Positions 47 to 18,216 of a DNA stretch of 32,000 bases are shown here, one piece after another. Made by a program: the position numbers and the translations under genes. The stretch lies in the NCBI RefSeq assembly GCF_009939295.1, contig NZ_WVIC01000013.1, forward strand, positions 1-32,000, written 5' to 3'. Position 1 is the first letter of the stretch; each line of letters begins with the position of its first letter. This DNA comes from Petrachloros mirabilis ULC683 (GTDB lineage: Bacteria > Cyanobacteriota > Cyanobacteriia > Thermosynechococcales > Thermosynechococcaceae). The notes beneath the pieces were generated by a model. The model searched no databases. It was not told where the DNA came from and saw only the letters and a program-made list of their open reading frames with translations.

Positions 47-463
47 TTACCCTGCTTTCACTCCCAGCCCTTGATAGACTTTGAGTTTGTCAATACTGCC
101 ACTGCTAATCACGATCTCAATGGCCAAATCTGGAAGTTCTTTGCGAGTTCCAATGCAATAGCTTTCATCCGGTTCCAGTCCTCTTGCTGCCGCTTCTTGC
201 CTAAATGTCGCCGAGCCGCAGCTAAACAAATCAATATCTCGCTCCAGGGCATAGGTCTCTAATAGACGCGCAATCATTTTTTTAAGCATCTCATGCTCAG
301 GAGAGATGGTCATGATCTCCAGATTTCCCTCCAGATAGGTGAGGCGCAGGCGAGGGCGATCGCCAAACATTGCAATCAGGGTTTCGTATTGCTGCCAGCT
401 CACATGGGGCAGAAAAATTCGCTCCTCAATGAGGGGGTCGAGCGGTTTTGCCAGCACAGTCAT
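47..463 (-). CDS. Uma2-family (DUF820) PD-(D/E)xK putative endonuclease, short form of 138 aa that appears to lack the C-terminal ~45 aa of the family
   Basis: Family-typical blocks are present: LEGNLEIMTISPEHE, GLEPDESY, PDLAIEIVISSGSIDKLKVYQGLGV. The ORF stops where the full-length paralogue at 15995-16567 continues with EYLLID plus ~45 aa. Its ATG (461-463) overlaps the upstream gene's TGA (460-462) as ATGA. Confidence 0.7.
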   Translation of the reverse strand: MTVLAKPLDPLIEERIFLPHVSWQQYETLIAMFGDRPRLRLTYLEGNLEIMTISPEHEMLKKMIARLLETYALERDIDLFSCGSATFRQEAAARGLEPDESYCIGTRKELPDLAIEIVISSGSIDKLKVYQGLGVKAG

Positions 464-2031
464 TGGCTCACCTCTAAGGGAATGTAAAAGTCCATGGCTT
501 CGATCGCATCAAAATAACCGCAGGTATTATCTAGCCACCCCTGTTCTGCCAGCGGGGATTTCAGTCTGCGATCGCTACCAGGCATTGGGGGAAGTGCCTC
601 TCGCTGATAAGCCGTTAAAAACTCTTTGGTTGCCGCTGACCCTCGTCTCAGCACCTCTCGGAGTGCCATCACTTTATTTCGCTTCTCTTTCCAGTCTTCT
701 CCTGTAAATGCTTTGATGATGGCTTCAAAATTTGCCCAATTTTGCCAATCACCGGGGTCAGCATGTAGCAGAAGCGGTCGCATTTCCAAGTGCTTCAAGT
801 GCTTATTGTCCTGAATACGGTATTCCCGTTCCCGAATTTCTGCTAAATCACCCAGCAACCCACTGGCTACGATATGCCAGTCAATGGCAGAAGCAGGTTC
901 CAGACGCTCACCTCCGCTCCGGTCGCGTTTGGCAACTTTTTTTGCAGATCGACACAGGGCTTCACTGAGTTCATAGGCTCTGGCGAAGGGATAGTGTGCT
1001 TTCACAATGCAAACGCCAGCACAGGCTGTCAGTGGTTTACCGTCTGCAATCGGTTGTGTTTCAAATAACTGAAGGGCGCGAACCGCCAGTGTTAACCCTA
1101 GACGACCATCGCAGACAAACGTAATATCATCTCCACCGTAAACCAACGGACGGAAGGGTAATTGTTGGGTTGTCAGGTCTAGTTTTTCTTGGAGAGTGTC
1201 CCAGTTGGCAATCAGTTCTTGAGTCAACTGCTGGAGCACAGCTTTCCCAGCTTTTTCAACACTCTGAGAAAGGTCGCGCATGGCAGTGATGTAGTCTTTG
1301 TCGTTTTTACCCTCGGCAAATCCCTGAAATCTTTTTCCCATACTGTTGCCATCTATATGCACGACGGCAAGGTAGCTCATTTCGTCCCTGGAACGTCCAA
1401 AGGCGTCGAAGTCTAAAGGAATATCCCATCCATCGGGCAGGTGCAGTGTTTGTTGCAATTGCGTATTGGCAAGCTTGACAGCATCTAGTTTTGCCACAAT
1501 TTCTCTGGAAACCGGATAGTCCGCAGGTGAACTATGATTCTTTCTCTGATCGACTGCCACCAAGCGAGTTGAGTTGCAGTCTTGCGTCACACCCAAACCT
1601 AAGAGAGGAGAAGAGGGGATGCGCGATCGCTTCTTCACATCCAGGTCATCTTTCATCATTTCCTGGACTATATCGTAAAGCTGATCTTGATCCCACTCAA
1701 AATCATGGCGATGAGCAACAACCAGGTTAATCCCTGGCGCTTCTTTCAGAACCTTAAGACTGAGTTTTTTCGTGAAGTCGATGGCCAAGTCAGCCGACTG
1801 AAACAGTAAGACGGTGTTACCACCTCCAGCATAAACTAGCTCTGCATCCTGAGTTTTAATCGAGGCTTCAGGGTTCGTAATCTTAAATTTCTGATTCAAA
1901 ATTTGCCTGACCCAGGCATCCGTCACCTGCCCAACCAGATAGGACGCGCCAATATTTTCTCGAAGACGGTTGCTGCCGAAAATATAGGACTGTATTCCAG
2001 TGGTGTCGAGAACTGTCACGGTTAATTTCAT
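460..2031 (-). CDS. Cas10-like / mCpol-like nucleotide cyclase with two tandem GGDEF-type palm domains and no HD domain
   Basis: 523-aa ORF. The N-terminus VLDTTGIQSYIFGSNRLRENIGASYL matches the Cas10 Palm1 signature (D-x2-GIQ-x-[FY]-I-F ... R..x.S.L). Palm1 carries YAGGGNTVLLF rather than GGDD. Palm2 carries VVHIDGNSMGKRF and VYGGDDITF (GGDD = nt 1126-1137). No HD motif and no Cys-rich zinc finger are seen. There is a ~170-aa helical C-terminal region. Both gene junctions are ATGA overlaps. Confidence 0.75.
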   Translation of the reverse strand: MKLTVTVLDTTGIQSYIFGSNRLRENIGASYLVGQVTDAWVRQILNQKFKITNPEASIKTQDAELVYAGGGNTVLLFQSADLAIDFTKKLSLKVLKEAPGINLVVAHRHDFEWDQDQLYDIVQEMMKDDLDVKKRSRIPSSPLLGLGVTQDCNSTRLVAVDQRKNHSSPADYPVSREIVAKLDAVKLANTQLQQTLHLPDGWDIPLDFDAFGRSRDEMSYLAVVHIDGNSMGKRFQGFAEGKNDKDYITAMRDLSQSVEKAGKAVLQQLTQELIANWDTLQEKLDLTTQQLPFRPLVYGGDDITFVCDGRLGLTLAVRALQLFETQPIADGKPLTACAGVCIVKAHYPFARAYELSEALCRSAKKVAKRDRSGGERLEPASAIDWHIVASGLLGDLAEIREREYRIQDNKHLKHLEMRPLLLHADPGDWQNWANFEAIIKAFTGEDWKEKRNKVMALREVLRRGSAATKEFLTAYQREALPPMPGSDRRLKSPLAEQGWLDNTCGYFDAIEAMDFYIPLEVSQ

Positions 2032-3356
2032 CCGCCAGCCTCCGCATCACTCTCTCGAATCCATTGCTCAATTTTTGCAGATAGATTGAGTAAATCCTCA
2101 CATCCAAATACGGTCAGCTTACTGTCGCCTTGAGTATTAGAATCAGGGTTTGATTTGAAAACATTGGTGATCTCTGTTTTCAATGCATCCGTATCTTTCT
2201 TGTTTGCACAGCAGACTAAAGCAACCCTTGCTTCATCACCTCCTAATTGCCGCGCTCGAATATAAGACTCAAATAGCTTTTGCTTACATCCAGGTTTCTC
2301 ATCAATCGTTGTACATGAAAGGGCAAATAGCTGATAGCCTCTAGTAAAAGCAACATCAAATTGAAACTTTGTTCTGTTCTCAGCGCTAGCGGGGTCTTTA
2401 ATCCAAAAGGAAGCTGCACTCTCATATATTTTGAGTGCTTTTGGAACTTCCTGGACTTGCTGCAAAGTGTAATCTTCCAGCCATTCTCCATCTAGCCACT
2501 TACAGAGATTGGATAGATCTTTGAATCCTGCTTTCTGAATCTCCTGTAGTGAAATTGTATTATCAGCGTCGGAGCATCCAAGCATTTTTAGAGCTGCAAT
2601 AATTTTGGAATAGTTTTTTAGAGAAGCTTTCGGCCCGATTTCTGAATCAGAAGGTATTTCCAAAGATAGAGGGGCAACTTCTTTTAATTCTTTTTCCTTT
2701 AGCCATCTGCCCTGTCTATTACGAGTAGCCTTACGCAGCACTGTGTTACACCATTCACGCCATGATTTTCCTAGTTCAGGATAGGCATGGAATTGGGCAA
2801 ATGCTGAAGCTGCTTCTGGACTAGTCGGTGTATAGTCTGGATCAGATAGCCATTGCCAGCCGTGAATCTGGAAAATTTTAGGTATCTTGACTTCTAAATC
2901 CTCAGGATGAACTTTGAGGCGAATACGATCGCCCTCTTCGCGATCAACGCACATTTCTAATTGTCGCGGATCAAGATAACTGAAAACTGCTTGCTGTCCC
3001 TTCTCTTTGAACATGGCACGATAGGCGTGGACTGCCATAGCCTTCGTGCCGCCTGTGTAATTCAGTCCGACTTGTCCATTAAGTTCCTTCAGAGCTTGCT
3101 GAATTCTGGTTTGAATTTGGTAGGCATCAGATTCATACTCTTCCAGAGGGACTAACTGAGCCTGTTGAAAGCCAGTTAGCTCGCTATCCAAAATCTTTTT
3201 TAGTCGCTGAGCGGGTCTTTCAGTTCCAGTGGTATAGATCAGATAGGGGGTGCCACCTCCTTTGAGCAGCAGCCTGGTTGCCATATAGTTCGGCAAGGGG
3301 TTTTCGCCGATTAGCAGAAAGAGAGAATCGACTTTATAGCTATCAAATTCAGCCAT
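2028..3356 (-). CDS. CARF-domain protein fused to a DUF1887/Card1/Can2-like PD-(D/E)xK-fold domain
   Basis: 442-aa ORF. N-terminal Rossmann-like CARF features: LFLLIGENPLPNY and LNYTGGTKAMAVHAY (TGGTK ligand loop). C-terminal blocks typical of Card1/Can2: DGEWLEDY, FQFDVAF, QLFALSCTTIDEK, QLGGDEARVALVC. Sampled GC (~33-48%) is lower than the flanks. Confidence 0.75.
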   Translation of the reverse strand: MAEFDSYKVDSLFLLIGENPLPNYMATRLLLKGGGTPYLIYTTGTERPAQRLKKILDSELTGFQQAQLVPLEEYESDAYQIQTRIQQALKELNGQVGLNYTGGTKAMAVHAYRAMFKEKGQQAVFSYLDPRQLEMCVDREEGDRIRLKVHPEDLEVKIPKIFQIHGWQWLSDPDYTPTSPEAASAFAQFHAYPELGKSWREWCNTVLRKATRNRQGRWLKEKELKEVAPLSLEIPSDSEIGPKASLKNYSKIIAALKMLGCSDADNTISLQEIQKAGFKDLSNLCKWLDGEWLEDYTLQQVQEVPKALKIYESAASFWIKDPASAENRTKFQFDVAFTRGYQLFALSCTTIDEKPGCKQKLFESYIRARQLGGDEARVALVCCANKKDTDALKTEITNVFKSNPDSNTQGDSKLTVFGCEDLLNLSAKIEQWIRESDAEAGG

Positions 3357-3388
3357 ACTTATGGAATTTTATCTGAATATTAATACCA

Positions 3389-3416
3389 ATATTAGCTTGG
3401 AAACTAACATTGGCAA
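3389..3416 (-). promoter_or_regulatory. Candidate sigma70-type promoter for the CARF/Cas10-like/Uma2 operon
   Basis: On the minus strand: TTGCCA (3416-3411), 16-nt spacer, TAATAT (3394-3389). It lies ~33 nt upstream of the CARF ATG, inside the AT-rich 84-nt gap after the cbiA stop. Confidence 0.3.
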
Positions 3417-3440
3417 TCTGCGATCGCATCCTTACGCTTC

Positions 3441-4835
3441 TTAAACCATCGTCCAATTGGCACAGTGTTGCACAAACCGCTGCGGGATTTCAGGCTGAGT
3501 TCCCCAGTGTAAGTGGACATAGGAAGCATGAACATTCTGGACACACCAACCCTCTGACTGGATGGGCTGCGCTTGCCGAAACCGATTCGTTATAAACAAT
3601 GGTTCTGAAGGAATTGGTGTGGTTTGGGAGTGATGAAATTCATGTCCCCAGACACACTGACCTTGGGTCACCAGAGGGGAGTGCCTTTGGGCAGTGGCCT
3701 GACGGTAACCCAGCGTCAGGCGTGGCTGCATGGTCACAGTTGTGGGAAGCACACCCACCATCGGAAAAGATTGACCCTGGAGATCTTGGATGGCCTCACA
3801 GAGATACATCAGCCCCCCACATTCAGCATAGGTGGGGATTCCAGCTTGAATCGCTGCTCGAACGGCTCCGAGCGCGGGCTGATTGGCACTCAGTGTCGCA
3901 GCAAAAATCTCGGGAAAGCCACCGCCAAAATATAGCCCCTGGACATTTGGGGGCAACGGATCCTGTAGCGGACTCCAGTAGACCAGTTCCGCACCACAAC
4001 GCTCTAGCAGTTCCAGGTTATCGGCGTAGTAGAAATTGAAGGCCGCATCTCGGGCAATTGCAATTCGCACGGATCCCGAAACAACCTGGCAGTTCTGGGT
4101 GGCCATGATGCTGGCTTGGGCAGGAGAACTCTGAAGCAAGGGCAAGAGAGCCGACCAGTTAAAGCTGCGATCGCCCACCTCCGCCAAGCGATCGATTAAG
4201 ATCCTCAGCTCCGGCAGCTCATCAGTGGGCACCAGTCCCAAGTGGCGATCTGGAATCGTAATATCATCTTGACGTCGGAGCACCCCCAACACTGGCATTT
4301 GGATGCGAGCCAGGGCACTTTTAAGAAAATCTAAGTGGCGATCGCTCCCCACTCGATTCAGCACAACCCCCGCAATCTGTAGGCGTGGGTCAAGAGATTG
4401 ATAACCCTTAGCTAAAGCCGCCACCGATCCAGACAGGCGCGAGCAGTCCAGAACCAGCAAAATCGGCAAATCTAGCAATCGGGCAATATGAGCTGTACTC
4501 CCCCAGTCATCTTCTAGAGTCGCCCCATCAAACAGACCCATCACACCTTCCGTCAGGCTGTAATTTGCCCTAAGGGCATGAGTCGCAAAGCAGTCTTGAA
4601 CATAGGATTCCGAAGTCAGGACTGGATCCAGATTGCGGCAGGGGCGACCCGTCACAAATTGATGAAACATAGGGTCGATATAGTCCGGCCCCACCTTGAA
4701 AGACTGGACTGAGATCGCCTGAGCGTCTAAACGGATATGGGCAATGGCTCTGCCTCGGCGCAGACTAGCGAGCAATGCCAGAGTGGTGGTGGTTTTGCCC
4801 GACCCGCTGCGTTCACCTGCGATCACCAAAGCCAT
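3441..4835 (-). CDS. cbiA: Cobyrinate a,c-diamide synthase
   Basis: N-terminal P-loop VIAGERSGSGKTTTT, FKVGPDYIDP, and C-terminal glutamine amidotransferase blocks GLYFGGGFPE and AECGGLMYL. Confidence 0.9.
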   Translation of the reverse strand: MALVIAGERSGSGKTTTTLALLASLRRGRAIAHIRLDAQAISVQSFKVGPDYIDPMFHQFVTGRPCRNLDPVLTSESYVQDCFATHALRANYSLTEGVMGLFDGATLEDDWGSTAHIARLLDLPILLVLDCSRLSGSVAALAKGYQSLDPRLQIAGVVLNRVGSDRHLDFLKSALARIQMPVLGVLRRQDDITIPDRHLGLVPTDELPELRILIDRLAEVGDRSFNWSALLPLLQSSPAQASIMATQNCQVVSGSVRIAIARDAAFNFYYADNLELLERCGAELVYWSPLQDPLPPNVQGLYFGGGFPEIFAATLSANQPALGAVRAAIQAGIPTYAECGGLMYLCEAIQDLQGQSFPMVGVLPTTVTMQPRLTLGYRQATAQRHSPLVTQGQCVWGHEFHHSQTTPIPSEPLFITNRFRQAQPIQSEGWCVQNVHASYVHLHWGTQPEIPQRFVQHCANWTMV

Positions 4836-5041
4836 GACGATACCTTAAGATTAGGGTGTCTCCGGGAGTGTTGATTCAACGTGACGTATTTTAGTTGTAC
4901 AAGATTACCCGTTCATCGTTGTGCCAAGATGACGTTCCCAGAAATCTGCAAAGCTCTCAATCTCAAAGAAGTGCAGTACAGGTGTCACTCTGGGCTCCGG
5001 TTTGCCCATACTAAGTTACAAAGCTCTGTTGCCGATCAATT

Positions 5042-5437
5042 GTGAGAATCTACAGTATGGTTAACCCCCTGGATAGTATTCAGCCTGTATCCCATCGAGA
5101 GGTGAATGTCTACCTACCCTACTACCAAGGCTCTAAACGAGACATGCTCCCCCTGGGCATCAGTCTTTATCAGAGCGGTAATCTAGAGGGGGCGCGAGGT
5201 ATTGAAGGTGGAGAGAATATCCCTTTCGTAGCCACCTGGAATGTGTCTAACCTACCCGCCGATCTAACCCGATGCCGTATTCAGTTCTCGGCAGATGCCG
5301 ATCTCAGCTATGAGGTGACCCTGACCAACTTTGAGTTCATTGGGTTCTTAATTGAGCTGTTGGCCAACTACAAACGAGCCAAGCTCGCTGACTTTCCGAA
5401 GCCCTTCTATCGCAAACTACTGCGCTTAGACGACTAA
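5042..5437 (+). CDS. Hypothetical protein (start could be ATG 5057 instead of GTG 5042)
   Basis: Only an intact 131-aa ORF in an otherwise empty interval. No recognisable motifs. Confidence 0.4.
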   Translation: MRIYSMVNPLDSIQPVSHREVNVYLPYYQGSKRDMLPLGISLYQSGNLEGARGIEGGENIPFVATWNVSNLPADLTRCRIQFSADADLSYEVTLTNFEFIGFLIELLANYKRAKLADFPKPFYRKLLRLDD

Positions 5438-5584: not shown

Positions 5585-6667
5585 GTGCCTAACACGGCTA
5601 AGTATCTGCTCGTAGGTTCAGTTGAAGCTTACAGCGGTAAATCTGCAACCATTTTGGGGTTGGCACAACTGTTGGTTAAGCGAGGAGTTGATTTTGCCTA
5701 TGGTAAGCCCCTGGGAACCTATCAAGAGGAAGCAGAGCGGTCTCCCTACGACCAAGATGTGAATTTTATTACGAAAACCCTGGGCTTGCCTGACTCTCAT
5801 GTCTGCCCTACAATCCTTTCGCCCCACCTAGGCGTAGTCAAAGATTGTCTGCAACACGAACTTCGTCCCCAGTTCGAGGCACAATTGATGACTTATCGCC
5901 AATCACAGGCGGGGGATCTGGTGATGTTGGAAGGACCAGGCTCTCTGGAAGAAGGACAACTCTTTGGCTTGTCGCTCCTGGAAATGGCCAATGGCATGGA
6001 TGCCAATATTCTTTTAATTGCTCGGTTTCATACACTGGGAGCGGTGGATGCTCTGCTGGCCGCTCAGGCCAGATTGGGATCTCGGTTGTTGGGGGTAATG
6101 CTCAACGATGTGCCTGAAGCAGACTGGCACCTGGCACAGGAGTTGGTGAAACCCTTTTTAGAAAGCTGTGGTATTCCAGTGTTTGGAATTTTACCCAGTG
6201 ATCAGCTACTGCGCAGTGTCAGTGTCTCAGAGCTTGTGCATCAGTTGAGCGCAGAGGTTCTGTGTCGCCCTGATCGTTTAGACCTGCTGGTAGATCAGCT
6301 CACTATTGGGGCGATGAATGTCAATTCGGCGCTGAAATATTTTCGCAAGGGTCGGAATATGGCTGTGGTTACGGGAGGCGATCGCACCGATATTCAGCTC
6401 GCGGCTCTTGAATCTTCGACCCACTGTCTGATTCTGACCGGGCACTTTTCGCCCAATTCTATGGTGCTCACTCGTGCCGATGATTTAGAAATTCCAGTCT
6501 TGGGCGTGGATCTAGATACATTAACTACGGTAGAAATTGTCGATCGCACCTTTGGACAAGTGCGACTTCACGAAGCGGTAAAAGTGGAATGCGTTCGACA
6601 GCTCATTGAGGCCAATTTTGATGTAGATCGGCTCCTCAGTAGCCTGGATATGAGGTCAGAATTCTAA
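5585..6667 (+). CDS. Phosphotransacetylase-family protein (BioD-like N-terminal domain + DRTGG domain)
   Basis: N-terminal LLVGSVEAYSGKSATILGL. DRTGG motif in AVVTGGDRTDIQLAALE. AAGGAG Shine-Dalgarno sequence 7 nt upstream of the GTG start. Confidence 0.75.
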   Translation: MPNTAKYLLVGSVEAYSGKSATILGLAQLLVKRGVDFAYGKPLGTYQEEAERSPYDQDVNFITKTLGLPDSHVCPTILSPHLGVVKDCLQHELRPQFEAQLMTYRQSQAGDLVMLEGPGSLEEGQLFGLSLLEMANGMDANILLIARFHTLGAVDALLAAQARLGSRLLGVMLNDVPEADWHLAQELVKPFLESCGIPVFGILPSDQLLRSVSVSELVHQLSAEVLCRPDRLDLLVDQLTIGAMNVNSALKYFRKGRNMAVVTGGDRTDIQLAALESSTHCLILTGHFSPNSMVLTRADDLEIPVLGVDLDTLTTVEIVDRTFGQVRLHEAVKVECVRQLIEANFDVDRLLSSLDMRSEF

Positions 6668-6671
6668 GCAG

Positions 6672-6914
6672 ATGGCGAAACAACGGTTCCCCTATCTGTT
6701 GGGGTCTAAGTGGACAGCTCAGGAAAAGACCTTTGGGTGGCGACACTTTCAAGTTGTGAACCGCAAAAATCAAGGCCACGTTATTTTTGCAGAGTTGGTG
6801 GCAGCCTGTGACGGGTCAGTGCGGTTTTGGGTCAATGCAGCGACACTCCAAAACCGGAGACTGTGGCAGGCCGGGTGGCAATCCCTGACGGAACAAGCTC
6901 ACAAAAAGCAGTAA
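6672..6914 (+). CDS. Small Trp-rich conserved protein (TIGR02450-like)
   Basis: 80 aa with GSKWTAQEKTFGWRHFQV ... RFWVNAATLQNRRLWQAGWQ, resembling the Trp-rich small-protein family as I recall it. Confidence 0.55.
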   Translation: MAKQRFPYLLGSKWTAQEKTFGWRHFQVVNRKNQGHVIFAELVAACDGSVRFWVNAATLQNRRLWQAGWQSLTEQAHKKQ

Positions 6915-6981
6915 GCTTGCACCATAAGGATTCAGCACATTTAAATTTAATTGGCACCCTGGCTAGAAATTTGAGGGATCT

Positions 6982-8076
6982 ATGACTGTGGGATCGGATG
7001 TTGTGATCATTGGCGGTGGCATTATTGGACTGGCTACCGCCGTTGAACTGTCGCTGCAAGGGGCACAGGTGACGGTGCTATCTCAGCAGTTTCGAGCAGC
7101 GGCAGCCCACGCGGCGGCTGGGATGTTGGCTCCGCAGGCGGAGGGTATTTTGCCAGGGGCGATGTTAGATCTATGTCTTCGCAGTCGGGCATTGTATCCA
7201 GAGTGGGTTCGGAAGCTGGAAGGACTGACAGGACTGGACACGGGTTATTGGCCCTGTGGTATTTTGGCACCCTTGTATGTAGATTGTCTGCCAACTCCTC
7301 AAAAGATGGAGGGGCTGTGGCTAGATAGAGCCGCGATCGCACATCATCAGCCCGGTCTTAGCACCGAGCTAGCAGGCGGCTGGTGGTTCCCCGAAGATGG
7401 ACAGGTAGATAATCGCGCCTTGATGCAAACCCTGTGGATCGCAGCTCAGACCTTAGGCGTCACGCTTCAAGAGGGAGTGGCAGTCCACAACATTGAGTAT
7501 CAGGGGCACCGCATCACCCAACTTCAGACGAGTGCTGGAGTGCAGCAAGGCGATACCTATGTCCTAAGTGCAGGGGCATGGTCTGGCCAATTGCTGCCCC
7601 TCCCTGTGGTGCCGCGCAAAGGCCAGATGCTCGCACTCCAGGTGCCCACTGAATTGGAAGCGCCCCTCTCCCAGGTATTGTTCGGCACTGAGATTTACAT
7701 TGTGCCCCGCCAAAATGGCCGTATTATTTTAGGAGCCACCAGCGAAGATGTGGGCTTTGCCCCCCACAATACACCCGCAGGTATCCAACAGCTCTTGAGT
7801 GGTGCCACCCGTCTTTATCCGGCTCTCAAAGACTTTGCGATCGCAGAATTTTGGTGGGGGTACCGTCCAGCCACCCCCGATGAATGCCCCATCTTGGGAG
7901 CTAGCCCCTACCAAAACCTGGTTTTAGCCACCGGACACTATCGCAATGGCATCTTACTAGCTCCAGTAACCGCCAGACTTATCGCAGCATTAATTGGCCA
8001 GAGCAATGAAGATCCGCTGCTGGCTTCATTTAGCTGCGATCGCTTTGCTGTTCCTGCTGCCAATACACTTAGGTGA
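6982..8076 (+). CDS. thiO: FAD-dependent glycine oxidase
   Basis: Dinucleotide-binding DVVIIGGGIIGLATAVEL at the N-terminus and C-terminal ATGHYRNGILLAPVTA typical of ThiO/DAO-family oxidases. Confidence 0.75.
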   Translation: MTVGSDVVIIGGGIIGLATAVELSLQGAQVTVLSQQFRAAAAHAAAGMLAPQAEGILPGAMLDLCLRSRALYPEWVRKLEGLTGLDTGYWPCGILAPLYVDCLPTPQKMEGLWLDRAAIAHHQPGLSTELAGGWWFPEDGQVDNRALMQTLWIAAQTLGVTLQEGVAVHNIEYQGHRITQLQTSAGVQQGDTYVLSAGAWSGQLLPLPVVPRKGQMLALQVPTELEAPLSQVLFGTEIYIVPRQNGRIILGATSEDVGFAPHNTPAGIQQLLSGATRLYPALKDFAIAEFWWGYRPATPDECPILGASPYQNLVLATGHYRNGILLAPVTARLIAALIGQSNEDPLLASFSCDRFAVPAANTLR

Positions 8077-8136
8077 CATCATCGTTATGTGTCAAAATTA
8101 GGCATAGAGATAAAGACAGAATGATTTTCTGGGCTA

Positions 8137-8165
8137 TTGACTGTACTATATCAAAAAGTATAAAT
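8137..8165 (+). promoter_or_regulatory. Candidate strong sigma70-type promoter of the R-M operon
   Basis: TTGACT (8137-8142), 16-nt spacer, TATAAA(T) (8159-8165), ~95 nt upstream of the endonuclease ATG. GAGGAG Shine-Dalgarno sequence just before the ATG at 8260. Confidence 0.4.
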
Positions 8166-8259
8166 ACATTGTTTTACAGCCACTAAAAATCTTCTCAAGA
8201 AAGATAAGTTTTGCTTTTTTAACAAAAACAATGTGTTCAGACAAACTTAAAAGAGGAGC

Positions 8260-9003
8260 ATGAGAGATTATAATCTTAGTTTTATAAGTAATGAAGACAT
8301 TTATAATCATGTCAAGGAAACCGTAAATAAATACAGATTTAATATCAACTTAGCTGAATTTAACAGAAATTTAGTAGATCCAATAAAATTGACATTTGAT
8401 ACAAAAATTTATCATAAAGATATTAAATTTATAATAGAAAGTGAGGTGTTAAGACAAATAGATAAATCCAATACAAATCATATTGGATATTTTCATCAAA
8501 ATATATTTCGATATTTGGGTAACGGATGGGAAGTTCCTTCAAAAGGATATGACATTGTTAATTCTAAATTCATGTATTTTGTTGAAATGAAAAACAAGCA
8601 TAATACCATGAATTCTTCATCTGCTCAGAAGACTTACATGAGAATGCAAAATACTTTACTATCTAATCCAGATGCAACCTGTCTGCTAGTAGAAGTAATT
8701 GCACGAAGAAGTCAAAATATTGTATGGAAAATGAGTTTAGATGGTCAAGCTGTGTCAAACAAAAGAATACGTCGGGTTTCCATTGATAGATTTTATGAAT
8801 TGGTGACTGATAGCCGAGTTGCATTTAAAGAATTATGTGAAAAGCTTCCTTTAATAATTCAAGATGTTGTCGAGGATAGCAATTTTGAAGCAGAGTCTAA
8901 CTCAGTATTCACAGAGTTAAGAGCCATTGATTCTAACTTATGGAAAAGTATTTATTTGCTTTCATTTAGAGAATATGAAGGATTTAATGATTTCAATATT
9001 TGA
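8260..9003 (+). CDS. Type II restriction endonuclease of the PD-(D/E)xK class (possibly Eco47II/Sau96I-like, unverified)
   Basis: GYDIVNSKFMYFVEMKNKHNT gives D98-x10-E109-x-K111 (nt 8551-8592). It lies directly upstream of, and overlaps, a C5 methyltransferase gene. GC is very low (~23-35% in sampled lines). Confidence 0.65.
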   Translation: MRDYNLSFISNEDIYNHVKETVNKYRFNINLAEFNRNLVDPIKLTFDTKIYHKDIKFIIESEVLRQIDKSNTNHIGYFHQNIFRYLGNGWEVPSKGYDIVNSKFMYFVEMKNKHNTMNSSSAQKTYMRMQNTLLSNPDATCLLVEVIARRSQNIVWKMSLDGQAVSNKRIRRVSIDRFYELVTDSRVAFKELCEKLPLIIQDVVEDSNFEAESNSVFTELRAIDSNLWKSIYLLSFREYEGFNDFNI

Positions 9004-10303
9004 TTCAGATCTAATTTCAGCAGAATTGGTAGCAGATATAATTTCCGTATCCAAAGCCACACTATTAAAGTGGGAAAAAGGTGGAAGATTAATTCCTTTT
9101 CAAAATCCCATCACGAACAAAAAAGAATATAAGACTTCTCAGCTCATTCAATTTGAAGAAGTCAGAAGCATGTTCAAAAGTAATTGGGATGAAGAATTGA
9201 GGGTTAAGCCTGCGAGAGACTTTTCATCAGTTGAACTTTTTGCGGGGGCAGGAGGACTTGCTCTAGGGTTAGAAAAAGCTGGATTCAATACAATAGCTCT
9301 CAATGAACTTGATGAAGATGCTTGTAAAACTCTTCAAGCCAATCGTCCCAAATGGAATGTCATTGAAGGTGACGTGAAAAATGTGGATTTTAGTAAATTC
9401 ATTGATATTGATCTTGTTTCTGGTGGATTTCCATGTCAAGCATTTTCTTATGCAGGGGAAAAATTGGGATTTGAAGATACCAGAGGTACGTTATTTTTTG
9501 AATTTTCCAGGGCAGTAAAAGAAATAAGACCAAAAATTTTCTTAGGTGAAAATGTGCGTGGCTTATTAAATCACGACAATGGAAAAACTTTGTCCGTTAT
9601 GAAATCAATTATTTCAGATCTAGGATATACACTTATTGAGCCAAAAGTTCTGAAAGCATTGTTTTATCGTGTTCCCCAAAAAAGAGAGCGTTTATTTTTT
9701 GTTGGCATCAGAAACGATTTGATTAGGTTTGCAAAATTTAAATGGCCATCACCCTATTACAGAATACTCGTTCTCAAAGACGCTTTGAAAGCTGGTGAAC
9801 TATACGATACCGATGTACCAGAATCAGAAGGTCAGTCTTATCCCAACAGAAAAAGAGAAATATTATCTCATGTGCCTCAAGGTGGCTATTGGAGAGATTT
9901 ACCAGATAACTTGCAAAGAGAATATATGCAGGGTAGTTATTTCTTAAGTGGTGGTAAAACTGGCATGGCACGTCGGCTCTCATGGGATGAGCCGAGCTTA
10001 ACTTTGACCTGTTCCCCCGCTCAAAAACAAACCGAAAGATGTCATCCAGAAGAAACGAGACCCTTAACGATTAGAGAGTATGCCAGAATACAAACTTTCT
10101 CAGACGAATGGTGTTTTTCAGGTTCAGTGAGTAGTCAATACAAACAAATTGGTAATGCAGTGCCCGTAAATTTAGCTTATGCAGTTGCTCGAAGTATAGT
10201 CGCGCTATTAAATAGTATTGACGCAAAAGTCGATCTAGAGGGTAATTTCTTAGCATCTAGTGAGTTATTTCAACCAAGGCAACTGACTTTGCTAAACACA
10301 TAA
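8975..10303 (+). CDS. DNA (cytosine-5) methyltransferase with an N-terminal excisionase/MerR-type HTH extension
   Basis: Canonical m5C motifs: I ELFAGAGGLALG, IV GGFPCQAFS, VI ENVRGLL, VIII QKRERLFFVG, X YKQIGNAVPV. An N-terminal ~85 aa carries ISVSKATLLKWEKGGRLIP. The start is uncertain: ATG 8975 or 8987 is likelier than the track start at 8927. Confidence 0.9.
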   Translation: MKDLMISIFDSDLISAELVADIISVSKATLLKWEKGGRLIPFQNPITNKKEYKTSQLIQFEEVRSMFKSNWDEELRVKPARDFSSVELFAGAGGLALGLEKAGFNTIALNELDEDACKTLQANRPKWNVIEGDVKNVDFSKFIDIDLVSGGFPCQAFSYAGEKLGFEDTRGTLFFEFSRAVKEIRPKIFLGENVRGLLNHDNGKTLSVMKSIISDLGYTLIEPKVLKALFYRVPQKRERLFFVGIRNDLIRFAKFKWPSPYYRILVLKDALKAGELYDTDVPESEGQSYPNRKREILSHVPQGGYWRDLPDNLQREYMQGSYFLSGGKTGMARRLSWDEPSLTLTCSPAQKQTERCHPEETRPLTIREYARIQTFSDEWCFSGSVSSQYKQIGNAVPVNLAYAVARSIVALLNSIDAKVDLEGNFLASSELFQPRQLTLLNT

Positions 10304-10422
10304 TACTCGGGTTCACCAGCCTCTTGAAAGCTGCTAGTACTGAATTTAAAGTTATCTGCCGCCGTTGATTTGAATGACAAAACTCATCGCCCTCATCCCC
10401 TAGACTCTTCTCCCCTTGTGGG

Positions 10423-10615
10423 CTACTGTGTATACATAAGTATGAGAAAAACAATTTCACCCTGCATTCGCCCCCTACATCCCCCATTCTGGGGGACTGC
10501 GAGATATTCAGAACCCCCCAAATTAGGCCCTTCGGGCACGCTTCGCGAGGGGGGGCGAGTGTAAGGATGTTAGAGGCTTTTAAATCATCTCCTTAGATTT
10601 GTGTGTACACAGTAG
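10423..10615. mobile_element. MITE-like non-autonomous element (193 bp) with 13-bp terminal inverted repeats and an 11-bp target-site duplication
   Basis: Left TIR CTACTGTGTATAC (10423-10435) matches the reverse complement of GTGTACACAGTAG (10603-10615) at 12/13. The element is flanked by perfect direct repeats CCCCTTGTGGG (10412-10422 and 10616-10626). Its interior contains C5-7/G5-7 hairpin modules shared with the repeat at 26355-26474. Confidence 0.5.
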
Positions 10616-10676
10616 CCCCTTGTGGGAGAGGGGTTGGGGGTGATAAGGATTTGTTGGCTAATCAGCCCAAAGGACT

Positions 10677-12365
10677 TCATTCACTTGTTGGGTAGGAAAT
10701 GCTGTAGATGGTCTGGGTTTCTAGGTTCTGGCACGTGGGGTAGGGCAAGTCTTCTGGTGACACTGACCTGCGGTCAAGCTGAATTTGGAGATTTTTGAGT
10801 GGATCTATGCAGTTGGAGATGAGAAACTCTAACCGGTTGATCGCGCCCCACCCTTTGAGTTGTGCCAAAATCTCTGCGATGGCTTTCACGTAAGGGTGAG
10901 AGGGTTGCTGATACCAGTCAGGAGCCGCTACATGGGGTTGATCGAGTCCTAAATGCACAATCAAGCCCGGATGCCCAAAAAGTGCGATCGCAACTGGGCG
11001 TGCTTCTTCCTGCAAGAGCAAATGCTGGCTGGTAGCCAAATGCCGTAGCTTTTCTAAATACTCATAGCGGTCAGTCACACTGAGGGAGACATCTTGCCAG
11101 TGAATAGCCACGGTCACCAGATAGGTCTGCAACAGCATATGACCTAGCTTCTCGGCCTTGGTAGCCAAATATTGAGTGTTGTAGGGCGTGGCCTCAATCA
11201 ACAAAGGCAAGCGATCCACAACTTCTAGACCATAGCCCTTGAGTCCAGCGATTTTGCGAGGGTTATTGGTAATCAAGCGAATTTTCTTGATGCCCAGATC
11301 ATTGAGAATCTGGGCACCCACACCATAATTCCGTAGATCTGCCGGGAAACCCAGCTTTTCGTTCGCTTCTACGGTGTCTAAGCCCATATCCTGTAACGAG
11401 TAGGCTTTGAGTTTGTTGATCAAGCCAATGCCCCGACCTTCCTGACGCAGATAGACCACAACACCCTGTCCAGCGGCTTCAATCATTTTGAGAGCCGCCT
11501 GAAGCTGCATCCGGCAATCGCAGCGCAGCGAACCGAGTGCATCCCCCGTTAAACATTCCGAGTGCATTCGCACCATCACCTGCCCATGGTCAAAATTAGC
11601 CGGATCACCTTTGACAATAGCGACATGATCAGAGTCATCTAAGGAGTTGTGATAGCCATAGATATGAAAATGACCAAACTCTGTGGGTAAATCAGCTACA
11701 GACTCCCGATGGACAAAGCGCTCATGCTGCAATCGATAGCTGATCAGATCAGCAATGCTGATAATTTTGAGCTGATGCTGTTGGGCATACTCCACGAGTT
11801 GCGGCAGACGAGCCATAGAGCCATCAGGATTTTGAATCTCGCAAATCACCCCCGACGGATATAACCCCGCCAACCGTGCCAGATCAATCGCCGATTCCGT
11901 ATGTCCCGCCCGTTTCAGGACACCGCCTTTGCGCGCCCGCAACGGAAAAATGTGCCCCGGACGCCGCAGATCGGTTGGTCGAGTTTCTGGGTTGATAGCC
12001 ACTTGAATTGTGCGCGCCCGATCTTCCGCCGAAATGCCAGTAGTCACACCCAAGTGGGGAGAAGCATCAATGCTGACCGTGAAGGCTGTTTGATTACTGT
12101 CGGTGTTGTGGGTAACCATCAGCGGCAAGTCTAGGGCATCGAGACGCTCTCCGGTCATGGCTAGGCAGATGAGCCCTCGCGCATTCACCGCCATGAAGTT
12201 AATCATTTCCGGGGTGGCAAACTGAGCCGCACAAACCAGATCGCCCTCGTTTTCTCGCCCTTCATCATCCACGACAATCAGCGCGTGTCCGGCCTTAAAT
12301 TCTGCAAGGGCAGCTTCAATGGAGTCAAATTGAAACGACTCCCCACTGGTAAACGTCGAGACCAA
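10677..12365 (-). CDS. ribBA: Bifunctional 3,4-dihydroxy-2-butanone-4-phosphate synthase / GTP cyclohydrolase II, with a ~150-aa C-terminal extension
   Basis: DHBP synthase block [21 protein letters not shown] cyclohydrolase II blocks [20 protein letters not shown] and [11 protein letters not shown]. The start codon is uncertain (the track uses TTG). Confidence 0.9.
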
Positions 12366-12516
12366 GGTTGGACTACCTGTTAAAATTTCTTAACAACTTA
12401 GCTCTATTCTAATCGATGGTCAGCCTTTTCCGTGCTGGGAATGGCTTGGGTCAGCCAAACCATCGTCTAGAATGATCTAGGGTTATGCGTCGTGACCAGT
12501 CTATCGAGGTAATTCT

Positions 12517-12693
12517 GTGGATCCCCAGTTGATGCAAGAGCGAATGGCCTATTTAACCCAAAAGCGCGAAGTCTTAGTGCAGCTTTTAGAGCAACCCGAT
12601 CTGGGAACGCTGCGGATTGATGTTAACCAAGCCCTAGAAGAAATGGATGATCTCTTAGAGGAGTTTCAGCGCACCTTTCCAGCGGCCTCCTAA
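12517..12693 (+). CDS. Possible small acidic helical protein of 58 aa, below the ORF-track cutoff
   Basis: Hand translation from GTG 12517 (or ATG 12532): DPQLMQERMAYLTQKREVLVQLLEQPDLGTLRIDVNQALEEMDDLLEEFQRTFPAAS, stop TAA 12691-12693. GAGG lies 7-8 nt upstream of the GTG. Confidence 0.3.
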   Translation: MDPQLMQERMAYLTQKREVLVQLLEQPDLGTLRIDVNQALEEMDDLLEEFQRTFPAAS

Positions 12694-12859
12694 ACCTGTA
12701 GTGAAGCCATCTCGCCCACCCGTTCAGTCCGACCATCAACTGGGTTAACCCCGCCTGCCGAGGTCGCTGACACTCCGCAACCTAAAAGTGTGGATATTTT
12801 CAGTTCGTTAGGCCGGTACGCAGCAGCCCCATCAGGAGAGTGAGATAAACTGACGTATA

Positions 12860-13855
12860 GTGCAAACGGGTGATTTAACTTTGCAACTTACGTTTCTTGG
12901 TACTAGCTCTGGTGTTCCCACGCGATCGCGCAATGTCTCCAGTATTGCCCTGCGTCTGCCCCAGCGTGGCGAAGTCTGGCTGTTTGACTGTGGCGAGGGC
13001 ACCCAACATCAGCTTCTGCGCAGCGAGGTCAAGATCAGCCAAATTCGTCGCATCTTTATTACCCACATGCATGGGGATCACATTTTTGGCCTGATGGGGT
13101 TGCTGGCGAGCTGCGGCATGGCAGGCAATCCAACCCAGATTGATCTCTATGGCCCACCAGAACTAGAGGACTATCTCAAAGCCTGTCAGCGCTATTCTCA
13201 AACCCATTTTTCCTACCCGATTCAAGTGCATGGGGTGCAGCCCGGGCAGGTCTATGCTGATGATGAGTTTACAGTATCCTGTCTGCCCCTGACCCATAAA
13301 GTGACGGCCTTTGGCTATCGGATCCAAGAGTGCGATCGCCCCGGACGCTTTGATGTCAAAAAAGCCACTGTCGCTGGCATTCCCCCTGGTCCTCTCTACG
13401 GTGAACTCAAGCAAGGCAAAAAGATCAAACTTCCTGATGGCCGCACCTTCAAGGGCAGTGACTTTTGCGGCTCCACCGAAACTGGACGTGTGCTGGCCTA
13501 CTGCACCGACACCATTTTTTGCGAAAATGCCGTTACCCTAGCCCAGCAAGCAGACGTGGTGATCCACGAGTCAACCTTCGCCCACCAAGATGCCGAAATG
13601 GCCTTTCAGCGCCTGCACTCCACCTCTACCATGGCCGCCCAAGTTGCGTTAGCCGCCGAAGCCAAGTTGTTGTTTCTCACTCACTTTAGTCCCCGCTACG
13701 CACCGGGCAATCCAATTGAACTGCATCATCTAACTGAAGAAGCACGAGCCATTTTTGCCAACACCAAAATGGCCCATGACTTTCTGACCTACGACATTCC
13801 TCGCCACGTCCCTGAGGTGACCATGCCAGCGGCACTCACCCGTTCAGCGTCGTGA
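12860..13855 (+). CDS. rnz: Ribonuclease Z (tRNA 3' endonuclease)
   Basis: LTFLGTSSGVPTRSRNVSS and the metallo-beta-lactamase motif ITHMHGDHIFGL. Confidence 0.85.
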   Translation: MQTGDLTLQLTFLGTSSGVPTRSRNVSSIALRLPQRGEVWLFDCGEGTQHQLLRSEVKISQIRRIFITHMHGDHIFGLMGLLASCGMAGNPTQIDLYGPPELEDYLKACQRYSQTHFSYPIQVHGVQPGQVYADDEFTVSCLPLTHKVTAFGYRIQECDRPGRFDVKKATVAGIPPGPLYGELKQGKKIKLPDGRTFKGSDFCGSTETGRVLAYCTDTIFCENAVTLAQQADVVIHESTFAHQDAEMAFQRLHSTSTMAAQVALAAEAKLLFLTHFSPRYAPGNPIELHHLTEEARAIFANTKMAHDFLTYDIPRHVPEVTMPAALTRSAS

Positions 13856-13912
13856 CATTCTCCCAACGGACGTTAACTTTTGGGGGACTGTGCGGGCTTC
13901 CTGCGTGACATC

Positions 13913-14485
13913 CTAATCCGGTAGCGGCGAAGCCTGACATTGGTTGGCAATCTGTGTCGGGTCGGGAGGGGTACCCTGACCAGGGTTGGCACCAGCGTAG
14001 TTCCCCGTTCGGATAATGCCTAAAATATCAGACACCACAATACAGCGCATTTTAGCGGTGCCATCAGTGTTGTAAATCAAAAAGCTGGCCTGGGCGTTGG
14101 TGGTTCCACGATAGGTAAATCGCACAGTATTGGAACCCGTAATCACAACGGGGCTGTTTTCAACAGGCAACACACGATCGCCAGTAATCAAGCATCGCTC
14201 TTGTCGTTCATCGGGTTTAGTAGGATCAGGCGCTTCACCACTCAATACCTCTGTTGCCGTCACCTCAACACTACAAGCTCGACTTCTTTTAATTGCCTCT
14301 GACTGGGCTTCCCGCAGTGCCCCTTCCAGTCGTACAACCGAGTCATCGACACGCTTATTATTCACCCAACTCAGGTAGCTGGGAATGGTAAAGGCAGCCA
14401 TAATCCCAATCATGACCACAATCACCAGGTTTTCTGCCAGGGTAAATCCAGCGGTGGAAAGGGAGGGCTTTGGCGATCGCAGCAT
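13913..14485 (-). CDS. GspH/FimT-like type IV pseudopilin (minor pilin)
   Basis: Prepilin signal ...STAG|FTLAENLVIVVMIGIMAAF (Gly-1, Phe+1, Glu+5), then RLEGALREAQSEAIKR typical of GspH/FimT. The start is taken at Met21 (ATG 14485) of the track ORF. Confidence 0.7.
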   Translation of the reverse strand: MLRSPKPSLSTAGFTLAENLVIVVMIGIMAAFTIPSYLSWVNNKRVDDSVVRLEGALREAQSEAIKRSRACSVEVTATEVLSGEAPDPTKPDERQERCLITGDRVLPVENSPVVITGSNTVRFTYRGTTNAQASFLIYNTDGTAKMRCIVVSDILGIIRTGNYAGANPGQGTPPDPTQIANQCQASPLPD

Positions 14486-14630
14486 GGTGTTCACGGCGGG
14501 CAAGGGATGAATGAACCAAGAATGCCTAGGGGATCTTGAGCGCATTCTATATCTTCATAATGCCCAAGCTTAAGTAAAGTTCAAGCAAAGGTTGAAGACT
14601 TACAATAATTGATACCAAGGAGGACAGGGC

Positions 14631-14912
14631 ATGACTGAGCCAAACAATCAGCTTGCAGTGCTAATTGACCAGGTTGGACGCTTAACTGAGGGATTAACCG
14701 AATTTCGAGCCGATATGGCAGACATCAAAGAACGGGTTCGGGAACAACTGGTTGTTGCTCAGGCTCAAGCTGAGAACATCAACCGTCTGGCTGAAACAAC
14801 TGATCGGCAAACGATTTTATCTGAGCGGCTGGTAGCGACCGTTGAGCGACAAGCAGCGACCGTTGAGCGACAGGCTGTAATGCTGGAAGCCTTACTCGGT
14901 CGGCAGGTATGA
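14631..14912 (+). CDS. Small coiled-coil protein of unknown function
   Basis: 93-aa heptad-rich ORF with a GGAGGA Shine-Dalgarno sequence upstream. Contains the in-frame tandem duplication ATVERQA-ATVERQA. Confidence 0.5.
   Translation: MTEPNNQLAVLIDQVGRLTEGLTEFRADMADIKERVREQLVVAQAQAENINRLAETTDRQTILSERLVATVERQAATVERQAVMLEALLGRQV
14835..14876 (+). repeat. 21-bp tandem duplication (2 copies, 19/21 identical) inside the coiled-coil ORF
   Basis: GCGACCGTTGAGCGACAAGCA (14835-14855) / GCGACCGTTGAGCGACAGGCT (14856-14876). Confidence 0.9.
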
Positions 14913-14947
14913 TGCACATCAGTGTTCTCTCATGATCGTCTTTCAAT

Positions 14948-15961
14948 GTGACGGGTTTTCTACTTACCCTCTTGGCCGAGCAACCAGTGGTTTTGATTTT
15001 GGTTGCTGCGGCGCTTCTCGATTTTCTAATCGGCGATCCGTGGGGATGGCTCCATCCCGTGCAGGCGATGGGGTGGGTGATTCAGGGCTACTGTTCCTGG
15101 GCGTTCAAGGTCTGCCAGACGCCACGAGCTGAAAAGCTGGCAGGGATTGGACTGGGGTTGGGGCTGGTGCTAGGGAGTGGGGCGATCGCAGCCCTCTTGC
15201 TCTGGGGAGCCTATACCCTCTCGCCCTGGTTAGGCATGGGGTTAGAAGTGGTTTTGCTGGCCAGTTGTTTCGCTGGCCGCAGTTTGCGCCGAGCGGCTGA
15301 AGATGTTCTCAAATCGTTGATGGCTGGGGATGAACTGATGGCGCGATCGCGCCTGCGCCTTTACGTAGGACGCGACACCGAAGATCTCACCGCACCCGAA
15401 ATGCTGCGCGCCATTCTAGAAACCGTCAGCGAAAACGCCACCGATGGCGTCTTTGCTCCCCTTTTTTACGCCATCCTGGGCTATACCCTCACCCATTGGA
15501 GCAGCCTCACGATCGACGCTGGAGTGCCCCTAGCCCTGGCCTACAAAGCCGCCAGCACCCTGGACTCCATGGTGGGCTATCGCCGTGCCCCCTACACCCA
15601 CCTGGGCGGGTTCAGCGCTCGCCTGGAAGACACCCTCACCTGGCTGCCCTGTCGTCTGAGCGTTGTTACCCTGGGCGCAATCTCAGGGCGGATCGCCCAT
15701 GTGTTGCATCTCTGTCGGCGGGATGCCTCCAAAGATCCTAGCCCCAACGCAGGCTGGAGCGAATGTGCCTACGCCGCCATTTTAGACGTGCAGCTCGGGG
15801 GGCTGAACACCTACAAAGGCATCCCCACCCTCAAACCCAAGCTGGGCAATCCCCATCGCCCCATCACCCCGGAGCGCATTCATCTGGCGCTGCGTCTGAC
15901 CCGCAATGGCTTTTTGCTCTGGCTTCTCATTGCACTGGCTATATTGGGAGAACCAACCTAG
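14948..15961 (+). CDS. cobD: Adenosylcobinamide-phosphate synthase CobD/CbiB
   Basis: Polytopic membrane protein with LDFLIGDPWGWLHPVQAMG, SENATDGVFAPLFY and PSPNAGWSE blocks characteristic of CobD/CbiB. Confidence 0.85.
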   Translation: MTGFLLTLLAEQPVVLILVAAALLDFLIGDPWGWLHPVQAMGWVIQGYCSWAFKVCQTPRAEKLAGIGLGLGLVLGSGAIAALLLWGAYTLSPWLGMGLEVVLLASCFAGRSLRRAAEDVLKSLMAGDELMARSRLRLYVGRDTEDLTAPEMLRAILETVSENATDGVFAPLFYAILGYTLTHWSSLTIDAGVPLALAYKAASTLDSMVGYRRAPYTHLGGFSARLEDTLTWLPCRLSVVTLGAISGRIAHVLHLCRRDASKDPSPNAGWSECAYAAILDVQLGGLNTYKGIPTLKPKLGNPHRPITPERIHLALRLTRNGFLLWLLIALAILGEPT

Positions 15962-15994
15962 TCGGCCACCTATCAGCCCAGAGGAACCTCCATC

Positions 15995-16567
15995 GTGACG
16001 TCTGCTGAAGCCAAACCAATTTACACCACAGACGAGTATTTTGCACGGGAACTCAGCTCCGAGATCCGTCATGAATTCATCAATGGAGAGATTATTCCCA
16101 TGACGGGTGGCACCCCCGAACATAACGAAATCACCAGTATTCTCAACGCCGTCTTGCGGCTAAACCTGAAAGGAAAGCCCTACAGCATTTTTATCGCCGA
16201 TCAACGCCTGTGGATTCCCCAACGCAATCTCTACACCTATCCTGATGTGATGGTTGTCCCCCGTCCGCTAGAGCGACAAGTCGGACGGAGTGATACGCTG
16301 GTCAACCCAATCCTGATTGCCGAAGTTCTTTCAAAATCCACTAAAAACTATGATCGGGGTGAGAAATTTGCCGCCTATCGCACCCTTCTCACCTTTCAAG
16401 AATATTTGCTCATTGACCCATCCACCCCTCAAGTGGAACGATACTTCAAAACTGGATCCTGCCAATGGATTTTTACGGAGTACAAAGATCTGAATGCTTC
16501 GATTTCACTCGAATCGATTCCCTGTAACATCAGGCTCTCGGAACTCTATGAAGCTCTTGATGCTTAA
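15995..16567 (+). CDS. Uma2-family (DUF820) putative endonuclease, full length
   Basis: [65 protein letters not shown]. Confidence 0.8.
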
Positions 16568-16587
16568 TCCCCATTCCAGACGCAATC

Positions 16588-17130
16588 ATGCCCAGCAACC
16601 CAGTTGAAATTCTCAATGCCGAGGAACTGCGACGGATGGTAACCCGCCTGGCTTCTCAGGTCGTTGAGCATGTCCGCGATCTAGATCAGTTGGTGCTCGT
16701 CGGCATTCACACCCGAGGCGTGCCTCTGGCTCAGAGTTTGGCACAGCAAATTCAACTGCTAGAGGGCATTGAGGTTCCAGTCGGCAGCCTGGACATCACC
16801 TTCTATCGGGATGATCTCGATCAAATTACAGTCCGAACCCCTGCCCTCACAGAATTTCCCAGTGATCTGTCGGGTAAAACGGTGGTGCTGGTGGATGATG
16901 TAATCTATAGCGGTCGCACGATTCGAGCGGCACTCAATGCCATTAATGACTATGGGCGTCCGGCCATCATTCAGCTTTTGGTACTCATTGATCGGGGGCA
17001 TCGAGAGCTGCCCATTCACCCCAACTATGTGGGCAAGGTTTTGCCCACCGCCCGCCATGAACAGGTCAAAGTTTATCTACAAGACCCCGATCAGCGCGAT
17101 GCCGTAGAGCTGAGGTCAGGGATTCCCTAG
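16588..17130 (+). CDS. pyrR: Bifunctional pyrimidine operon regulator / uracil phosphoribosyltransferase PyrR
   Basis: [18 protein letters not shown], and the PRPP-binding loop [18 protein letters not shown]. Confidence 0.85.
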
Positions 17131-17157
17131 CAGTCTCAAAGAGATGAACAGTTTTGG

Positions 17158-17517: not shown

Positions 17518-17565
17518 TGATCTAACCTGATAGAGACAAAGCCTTTCCTATACTCTAACCTAGCC

Positions 17566-18030: not shown

Positions 18031-18216
18031 CTGGCAATAAAAAGAGCGAACATTTCATTACAGATCCTATGATAATCCTCTGCTTTTCTGGGGCAAACTG
18101 GAGAAAGAGGTTTAGCTCTTGTGTTTTAGGGTGTTACTGTCCCTAGGCCATTACAGATGGCGAAAACAATAGAGAAAGGCTGATATACTACCTTTGCAAT
18201 CATTGGATAATAGGAG

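Follow-up and report, generated by a model that had tools for sequence, protein, structure and literature searches.

A previously undescribed clade 1 Can2 protein with glutamine at the metal-B position, encoded in an IS-split cyanobacterial type III-D CRISPR-Cas operon

Clade 1 is the largest clade of Can2 proteins and is found in type III-D loci; its members lack the (E/S)CK motif and have E-ExD-SxTTS-K instead (Jungfer et al., PMC10783487). In TbrCan2 of Thermoanaerobacter brockii (PDB 8Q3Y-8Q44), Mn-A is bound directly by D343 and Mn-B by E341 together with D343, outer-sphere contacts are made by E304, S356 and K369 with E372 close by, and the substrate is held by T358, T359 and S360, which grip its phosphates, and by K301, which forms a salt bridge with the scissile phosphate (PMC10783487). 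The substitutions introduced into this protein have three outcomes: (i) E304A, D343A and K369A abolish DNase activity, (ii) E341A gives a DNase-dead protein with residual RNase activity, which served as the inactive form in DNA co-crystals, and (iii) S360A reduces activity (PMC10783487). NxTGGTK is the conserved cOA-binding motif, and the allosteric relay of TbrCan2 is made up of F340, R376, I380, D383 and E384 (PMC10783487). TresuCard1 and SthCan2 (clades 5, 2/6; 6WXW, 6XL1, 7BDV) are likewise ancillary nucleases of type III systems, activated by cA4; they carry E-ExD-(E/S)CK with the lysine on the strand, and their activation relay differs ('pull-and-rotate', PMC10783487).

Two described systems bring a Cas10-type cyclase together with a sensor-effector. 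In the III-Dv system of Synechocystis sp. PCC 6803 (8S9T; PMC11026444) a short HD-less GGDD Cas10 is accompanied by Csx10, Cas7-2x, Csx19 and a large Cas7; Cas10 makes cOA upon target binding (PMC11026444) and in this way signals to a CARF effector, the characterised one being Csx1, a HEPN RNase. In Panoptes (mCpol + 2TM-beta or CARF-TM; PMC12657218, PMC13577387) a small Cas10-like palm cyclase adjoins the gene of a cyclic-nucleotide sensor-effector. These two genes form a guard that is independent of CRISPR, synthesises its signal constitutively and acts through membrane effectors.

Here, we analyse a locus in which a CARF nuclease gene precedes a short cas10 at the very end of a contig of Petrachloros mirabilis ULC683; the window, i.e. 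the whole stretch of 32,000 nucleotides that was analysed, starts at base 1 of this contig (C23). The nuclease, P0001, is a previously undescribed member of clade 1 Can2. Its sequence and that of its neighbours suggest that it is probably an active, ligand-gated Can2 ancillary nuclease of the TbrCan2 type that belongs to a cyanobacterial type III-D CRISPR-Cas system.

Identity and fold of the Can2 protein

The can2 gene lies at 2028-3356 on the minus strand and encodes a protein of 442 aa composed of a CARF domain, a helical insertion and a PD-(D/E)xK nuclease domain. In Pfam, CARF_Card1 scores 23.3 bits, slightly below its cut-off of 24.6, and Card1_endonuc is also sub-threshold (18.7 bits, cut-off 26.4); PHROGs and NCBIfam gave no useful match for P0001, and the PADLOC model CARF4--CARF_PDDEXK covers it end to end (E 7e-155). 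By sequence, the top PDB match is TbrCan2 8Q3Y (phmmer, E 8e-25; entries 8Q3Y-8Q44, 'DUF1887 family protein'). An AF2 model made with 39 homologues as input has a pLDDT of 88.3, and the ten best Foldseek matches to this model are all TbrCan2 chains (E 2e-23). Aligned with VIA-align, the model matches TbrCan2 chains with Z 27.6-28.4 over 370-386 residues at an rmsd of 3.9-4.3 A, and its CARF - helical insertion - REase architecture is superposable on that of TbrCan2. Other Can2/Card1 structures and VC1899 give Z in a similar range; TresuCard1 and SthCan2, which share the CARF + PD-(D/E)xK fold, reach Z 22-28. The ligand-binding motif NxTGGTK is present in the CARF domain as N99-Y-T-G-G-T-K105 (3042-3062, minus strand) and is near-invariant in 264 homologues. 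P0001 has the three domains, the CARF motif and the type III-D locus in common with TbrCan2; the two proteins are about 24% identical. As a separate observation, P0160, a protein of 1873 aa, carries a complete C-terminal Can2-like region (residues 1451-1868, 39% identity) and would be a large fusion.

The type III-D operon and its IS insertion

The can2 gene comes directly after cobB (3441-4835, same strand), and the 84-nt gap between them holds a promoter-like TTGCCA-16-TAATAT at 3388-3416 on the minus strand, a consensus match only. The can2 stop is overlapped (ATGA) by the start of cas10, located on the minus strand at 460-2031, which encodes P0002, a short HD-less Cas10 with GGDD at residues 299-302. 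Next is the 5' part of a uma2 gene (55-463, minus strand), which is inserted between cas10 and cas7. Its frame runs to a stop at 47-49 inside the end of a multicopy IS element; this end occupies positions 1-54, and the element disrupts uma2 and causes the break in the assembly.

The operon resumes on a second contig (G000:C39). There the Uma2 frame is taken up again in C39:51-260 and ends right before the start codon of cas7, and the genes that follow encode Cas7 (261-914), Csx10 (918-2513), Cas7-2x (2510-3976) and Csx19 (4644-5219). In total, the type III-D effector genes span C39:261-8099, across the IS insertion from can2-cas10. Two ORFs separated by a 71-nt gap, 5866-6387 and 6459-8099, encode the large Cas7_IIId (profile PDLC02114). 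They cover profile positions 1-135 and 141-544 and may be a natural split or the remnant of a frameshift or insertion. At each of the two contig starts, C23 and C39, the initial 53-54 nt recur identically at four other contig ends, and we therefore attribute many breaks in this assembly to the same IS. The IS ends form inverted repeats (TIR CAGGGTAAGCGCAAG...) and are flanked by a 10-bp target duplication, GGAGTGAAAG. The assembly is thus broken at this point by one IS, which has gone into the uma2 gene that separates cas10 from cas7.

Among 80 related loci in species genomes, cas10 directly follows can2 in 76, and in 71 of the 80 the genes that come next, in the same orientation, encode Cas7/Csm3, Cas5_IIId/Csx10 and Cas7_IIId, with GGDD kept. 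Upstream of can2, the related loci have a divergent WYL regulator (56 loci) and Csx3 (26 loci), neither of which has a homologue in this genome. We suggest that the IS insertion may exert a polar effect on cas7 and the later genes and in that way silence the effector genes, and that the type III-D system may be decaying in this strain, given the insertion and the lack of WYL and Csx3; the two ORFs of the large Cas7 also bear on whether it still works. No CRISPR array is found within 16 kb on C39; arrays are present elsewhere in the genome on C5 (33 repeats), C18 (22), C57 (12) and C77 (14). None of the arrays in the genome could be linked to this locus. The gene content parallels that of Synechocystis III-Dv, and cOA signalling to a CARF effector would likewise be shared; the differences are that the effector is Can2 and not Csx1 and that Cas7 and Csx10 are encoded by separate genes.

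The genome also has a second type III locus (L082/L085, G000:C56, about 7293-18300), in which a CRISPR array of 9 or more repeats (7293-7881; GCTTTTCCTTACCACTACCCCG...) and the gene for a 573-aa HD-less Cas10 (about 13150-14870, 34% identical to P0002) are followed by RAMP genes. Two further Uma2 genes lie near the type III loci: one is full-length and lies within the cas operon described here, with csx19 on one side and the large cas7 on the other (C39, L084, 5216-5785, 189 aa; Pfam Uma2 E 2.5e-39, PADLOC PDC-S03), and the other is found just upstream of the second type III locus (L082:239-823). With roughly 70 Uma2 places in the genome, simple abundance is a possible explanation for these extra genes.

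The active-site motif and the metal-B position

P0001 was mapped onto TbrCan2 in gap-free HMMER blocks anchored on G-x-W-x-E-x-Y and F-x-x-D, and TbrCan2 numbering was checked on the deposited E341A and E364R mutant chains, in which the chain number is the paper number plus 2. The original prediction had reported S-C-T where Card1 and Can2 carry E-x-K, a retained D334, and Q rather than E just before the strand with the aspartate. The codon check bears out all three: on the minus strand, S347-C348-T349 is encoded by TCA TGT ACA (2310-2318), Q332 by CAA (2361-2363) and D334 by GAT (2355-2357), and the landmarks GEWLEDY, KQKLFE and QLGGDEARVALV are present in the translation. Nor is the S-C-T that stands where E-x-K was expected a matter of chance: S347 is found in 256, C348 in 231, T/S349 in 241 and T350 in 236 of the 264 aligned homologues.

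Together with T350 (2307-2309), S-C-T forms the strand segment S347-C348-T349-T350 (2307-2318, minus strand), which aligns with S356-L-T358-T359 of TbrCan2. On this alignment the segment is the published SxTT motif, i.e. the substrate-phosphate-binding SxTT(S) of clade 1 Can2, and neither a dead site nor a degenerate ExK. The (E/S)-C-K triad of clades 2, 5 and 6 is absent from P0001, as Thr replaces Lys and the strand reads S347-C348-T349 where TresuCard1 and SthCan2 have their strand lysine. The original prediction was thus right in that the canonical E-x-K is missing and that the catalytic lysine must come from elsewhere; its source is, as judged from the alignment, not the D352-E353-K354 triplet but K360, which lies on the following helix in K358-Q-K360-L-F-E363 (2268-2285, minus strand) and aligns with the catalytic K369 of TbrCan2. 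In the same way, E363 aligns with E372 and D334 with D343. The lack of the ECK triad, the SxTT strand and the lysine on the next helix are all shared with TbrCan2. Neither the S-C-T feature nor the relocation of the lysine is novel; both were described before.

The remaining residues of the site and of the relay follow TbrCan2 to different degrees. The helix acids of GEWLEDY are E291 and E294 (2475-2486, minus strand); E294 corresponds to TbrCan2 E304, is kept in 261/264 aligned homologues and is, like the strand Asp, also common to TresuCard1 and SthCan2. Across the family E294, D334, S347, T350, K358, K360 and E363 are near-invariant. The relay comprises R367 and the segment L371-G-G-D374-E375 (2232-2258, minus strand), with R367, L371, D374 and E375 equivalent to R376, I380, D383 and E384 of TbrCan2 and F331 equivalent to F340; R367 and E375 are invariant in alignment A1. 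P0001 differs from TbrCan2 in having P355 for the base-selecting E364, E291 for K301 and, at the fifth SxTTS position, I351 for S360. The last of these positions is variable in the family (T 61, S 57, I 53 and D 51 of 264). An alignment with characterised Can2 proteins, the check that had been proposed, did not bring back a canonical ExK; it recovered a TbrCan2-type site of E294, D334, SxTT, K360 and E363, in which the strand Glu is Q332. Of the helix Glu and strand Glu pair of E-ExD, E294 is present and the strand Glu has become Gln.

This exchange lies in the strand Q332-F-D334 (2355-2363, minus strand), the equivalent of E341-x-D343. From the alignment, we consider Q332 in place of the metal-B Glu as the sole real departure of P0001 from the TbrCan2 motif, with E291 alongside it in this lineage. 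Of the 264 homologues, 170 have E at position 332 and 87 have Q, and the 87 Q332 proteins otherwise retain the site (D334, K358 and E363 in all 87, S347 in 86, K360 and T350 in 85, E294 in 84) and are encoded in complete type III-D operons with a GGDD Cas10. A FastTree tree calculated after removal of columns 332 and 291 requires at least 24 changes between E and Q at position 332 and at least 16 changes of E291. Of 21 phylogenetically independent pairs with different residues at 332, about 10 show a co-directional change at 291, none shows an opposite one and about 11 show no change (median sign-test p ~0.002). E291 mostly occurs on Q332 backgrounds (73/82 occurrences in the 264-homologue set, 16/19 in the species genomes), and it is missing from 15 of the 31 Q332 proteins in the species genomes. 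Given these 15 proteins, we regard E291 as an associated change, and its role as an obligatory compensator of Q332 was rejected. A carboxylate at position 291 could plausibly come within reach of the metal site, since the aligned K301 of TbrCan2 touches the scissile phosphate. Gln at position 341 is not mentioned in the main text of PMC10783487; the QxD state with E291 departs, as does its repeated turnover, from the published clade 1 motif.

Alternative readings, mechanism and implications

The deviations at Q332, I351 and E291 raise the question of whether P0001 is a nuclease at all. The original prediction had offered a dead effector as one of its two readings. P0001 would then be an inactive cOA binder, i.e. 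a sponge, scaffold or regulator, whose nuclease would have been killed by Q332 and by loss of ExK and of the last Ser of SxTTS. The choice of TbrCan2 E341A as the inactive protein for DNA co-crystals and the deviation of each of the three residues from the TbrCan2 motif speak for this reading. However, active clade 1 Can2 proteins normally do without ExK, TbrCan2 E341A still has residual RNase activity, the other catalytic and substrate-binding residues are near-invariant in the 87 Q332 proteins, which is unexpected after loss of function, and E and Q toggle at least 24 times within intact type III-D operons with a GGDD Cas10. As the rest of the site is near-invariant and the operons are complete with GGDD Cas10, we argue that the Q332 site works and consider an inactive binder unlikely. 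The second reading, a register-shifted active site with D352-E353-K354 (2295-2303, minus strand) as (D/E)xK, draws on the location of the triplet five residues past S-C-T and on position 354, which is usually K/R. Nevertheless, the two acids are not conserved: of the 87 Q332-type proteins, which make up the closest subclade, 30 have D352 and 8 have E353, and outside this subclade both are scarcer; moreover, the triplet aligns with the non-catalytic S361-T362-R363 of TbrCan2, and it is mutation of K369, the equivalent of the near-invariant K360, that abolishes DNase activity. A shifted site is therefore highly improbable, and we do not treat the triplet as a catalytic motif.

A third reading concerns the locus and not the residues. 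The window shows no RAMP genes, has cobB upstream and reaches the end of the contig 46 nt past the stop of the truncated uma2, and it is from this picture that can2, cas10 and uma2 had appeared as an orphan module: a stand-alone CARF effector with a minimal cyclase, similar to mCpol/Panoptes, lacking CRISPR guidance and having Uma2 as a third partner. The missing genes, however, start 260 nt into C39, after the other IS end and the rest of uma2, and Cas7, Csx10, Cas7x2 and Csx19 come next in 71/80 relatives. P0002 matches the III-Dv Cas10 (E 2e-31), and no mCpol structure matches it at E <= 1; by these matches and by the neighbours of the locus, P0002 as a Panoptes mCpol was rejected. A self-contained cyclase-effector operon devoid of Cas7/Cas5, as in Panoptes, is not what is found here; rather, the cyclase belongs, as a subunit, to a complete type III-D effector operon headed by can2-cas10. 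Uma2 follows cas10 in 4/80 related loci, two of these being 43-aa remnants, and occurs anywhere in the locus in 5/80. With these counts, the roughly 70 Uma2 places in the genome and the IS-disrupted copy at this locus, the suggestion that Uma2 supplies the catalytic activity to Can2 was also rejected. We give the stand-alone module next to no credence.

Returning to an active Can2 nuclease within a type III-D system, we suggest the following model by homology. Binding of target RNA by Cas10-Cas7-Csx10 would cause the HD-less Cas10 to make cOA, most likely cA4, and this ligand would bind to the CARF pocket (NxTGGTK, Y127) of a Can2 dimer. Its presence would be sensed by the GGDE loop and helix (R367, L371, D374, E375), which would then push the Q332/D334 strand into the active site. 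From the alignment, the PD-(D/E)xK domain would cut single-stranded RNA and perhaps DNA using one or two metals, with E294, D334 and K360 as the catalytic set and E363 nearby, and with S347, T349 and T350 holding the substrate backbone and also making outer-sphere metal contacts. D334 together with Q332 and/or E291 may hold metal B, or this metal may be largely dispensed with, and RNase activity would then be favoured over DNase activity. Q332 could cripple at least DNA cleavage; most plausibly, given the phenotype of TbrCan2 E341A, it weakens DNase more than RNase activity, and P0001 is possibly biased towards RNA.

For the annotation of this genome, the analysis replaces an orphan CARF/cyclase/Uma2 module by a type III-D CRISPR operon that is split by an IS over two contigs. 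A short HD-less Cas10 and a stand-alone mCpol are easily confused if just two genes are visible, and here it was the contig edge that made the locus an 'orphan'; where a clade 1 Can2 is found beside a short Cas10, downstream genes for Cas7 and Csx10 should be looked for before the pair is called CRISPR-independent. S-C-T in place of E-x-K is explained by published structures and is not to be pursued as a dead effector or as novel catalysis.

More tentatively, it is possible that in cyanobacterial type III-D Can2 the metal-B ligand acts as an evolutionary switch, in which recurrent exchange of Glu332 for Gln, often together with an acid gained at 291, retunes metal binding and moves the nuclease between DNase+RNase and RNase-biased modes; the odds are, in our estimation, against this idea. 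If it were true, E-ExD-SxTTS-K would describe just one of two functional states of these proteins, and an RNase bias might limit harm to the cell's own chromosome. The E-to-Q exchange and its link to E291 constitute a small, testable point on how the metal site of Can2 is tuned and, possibly, on its preference for RNA versus DNA, a preference that is relevant to the self-toxicity of type III systems and to Can2-based diagnostics.
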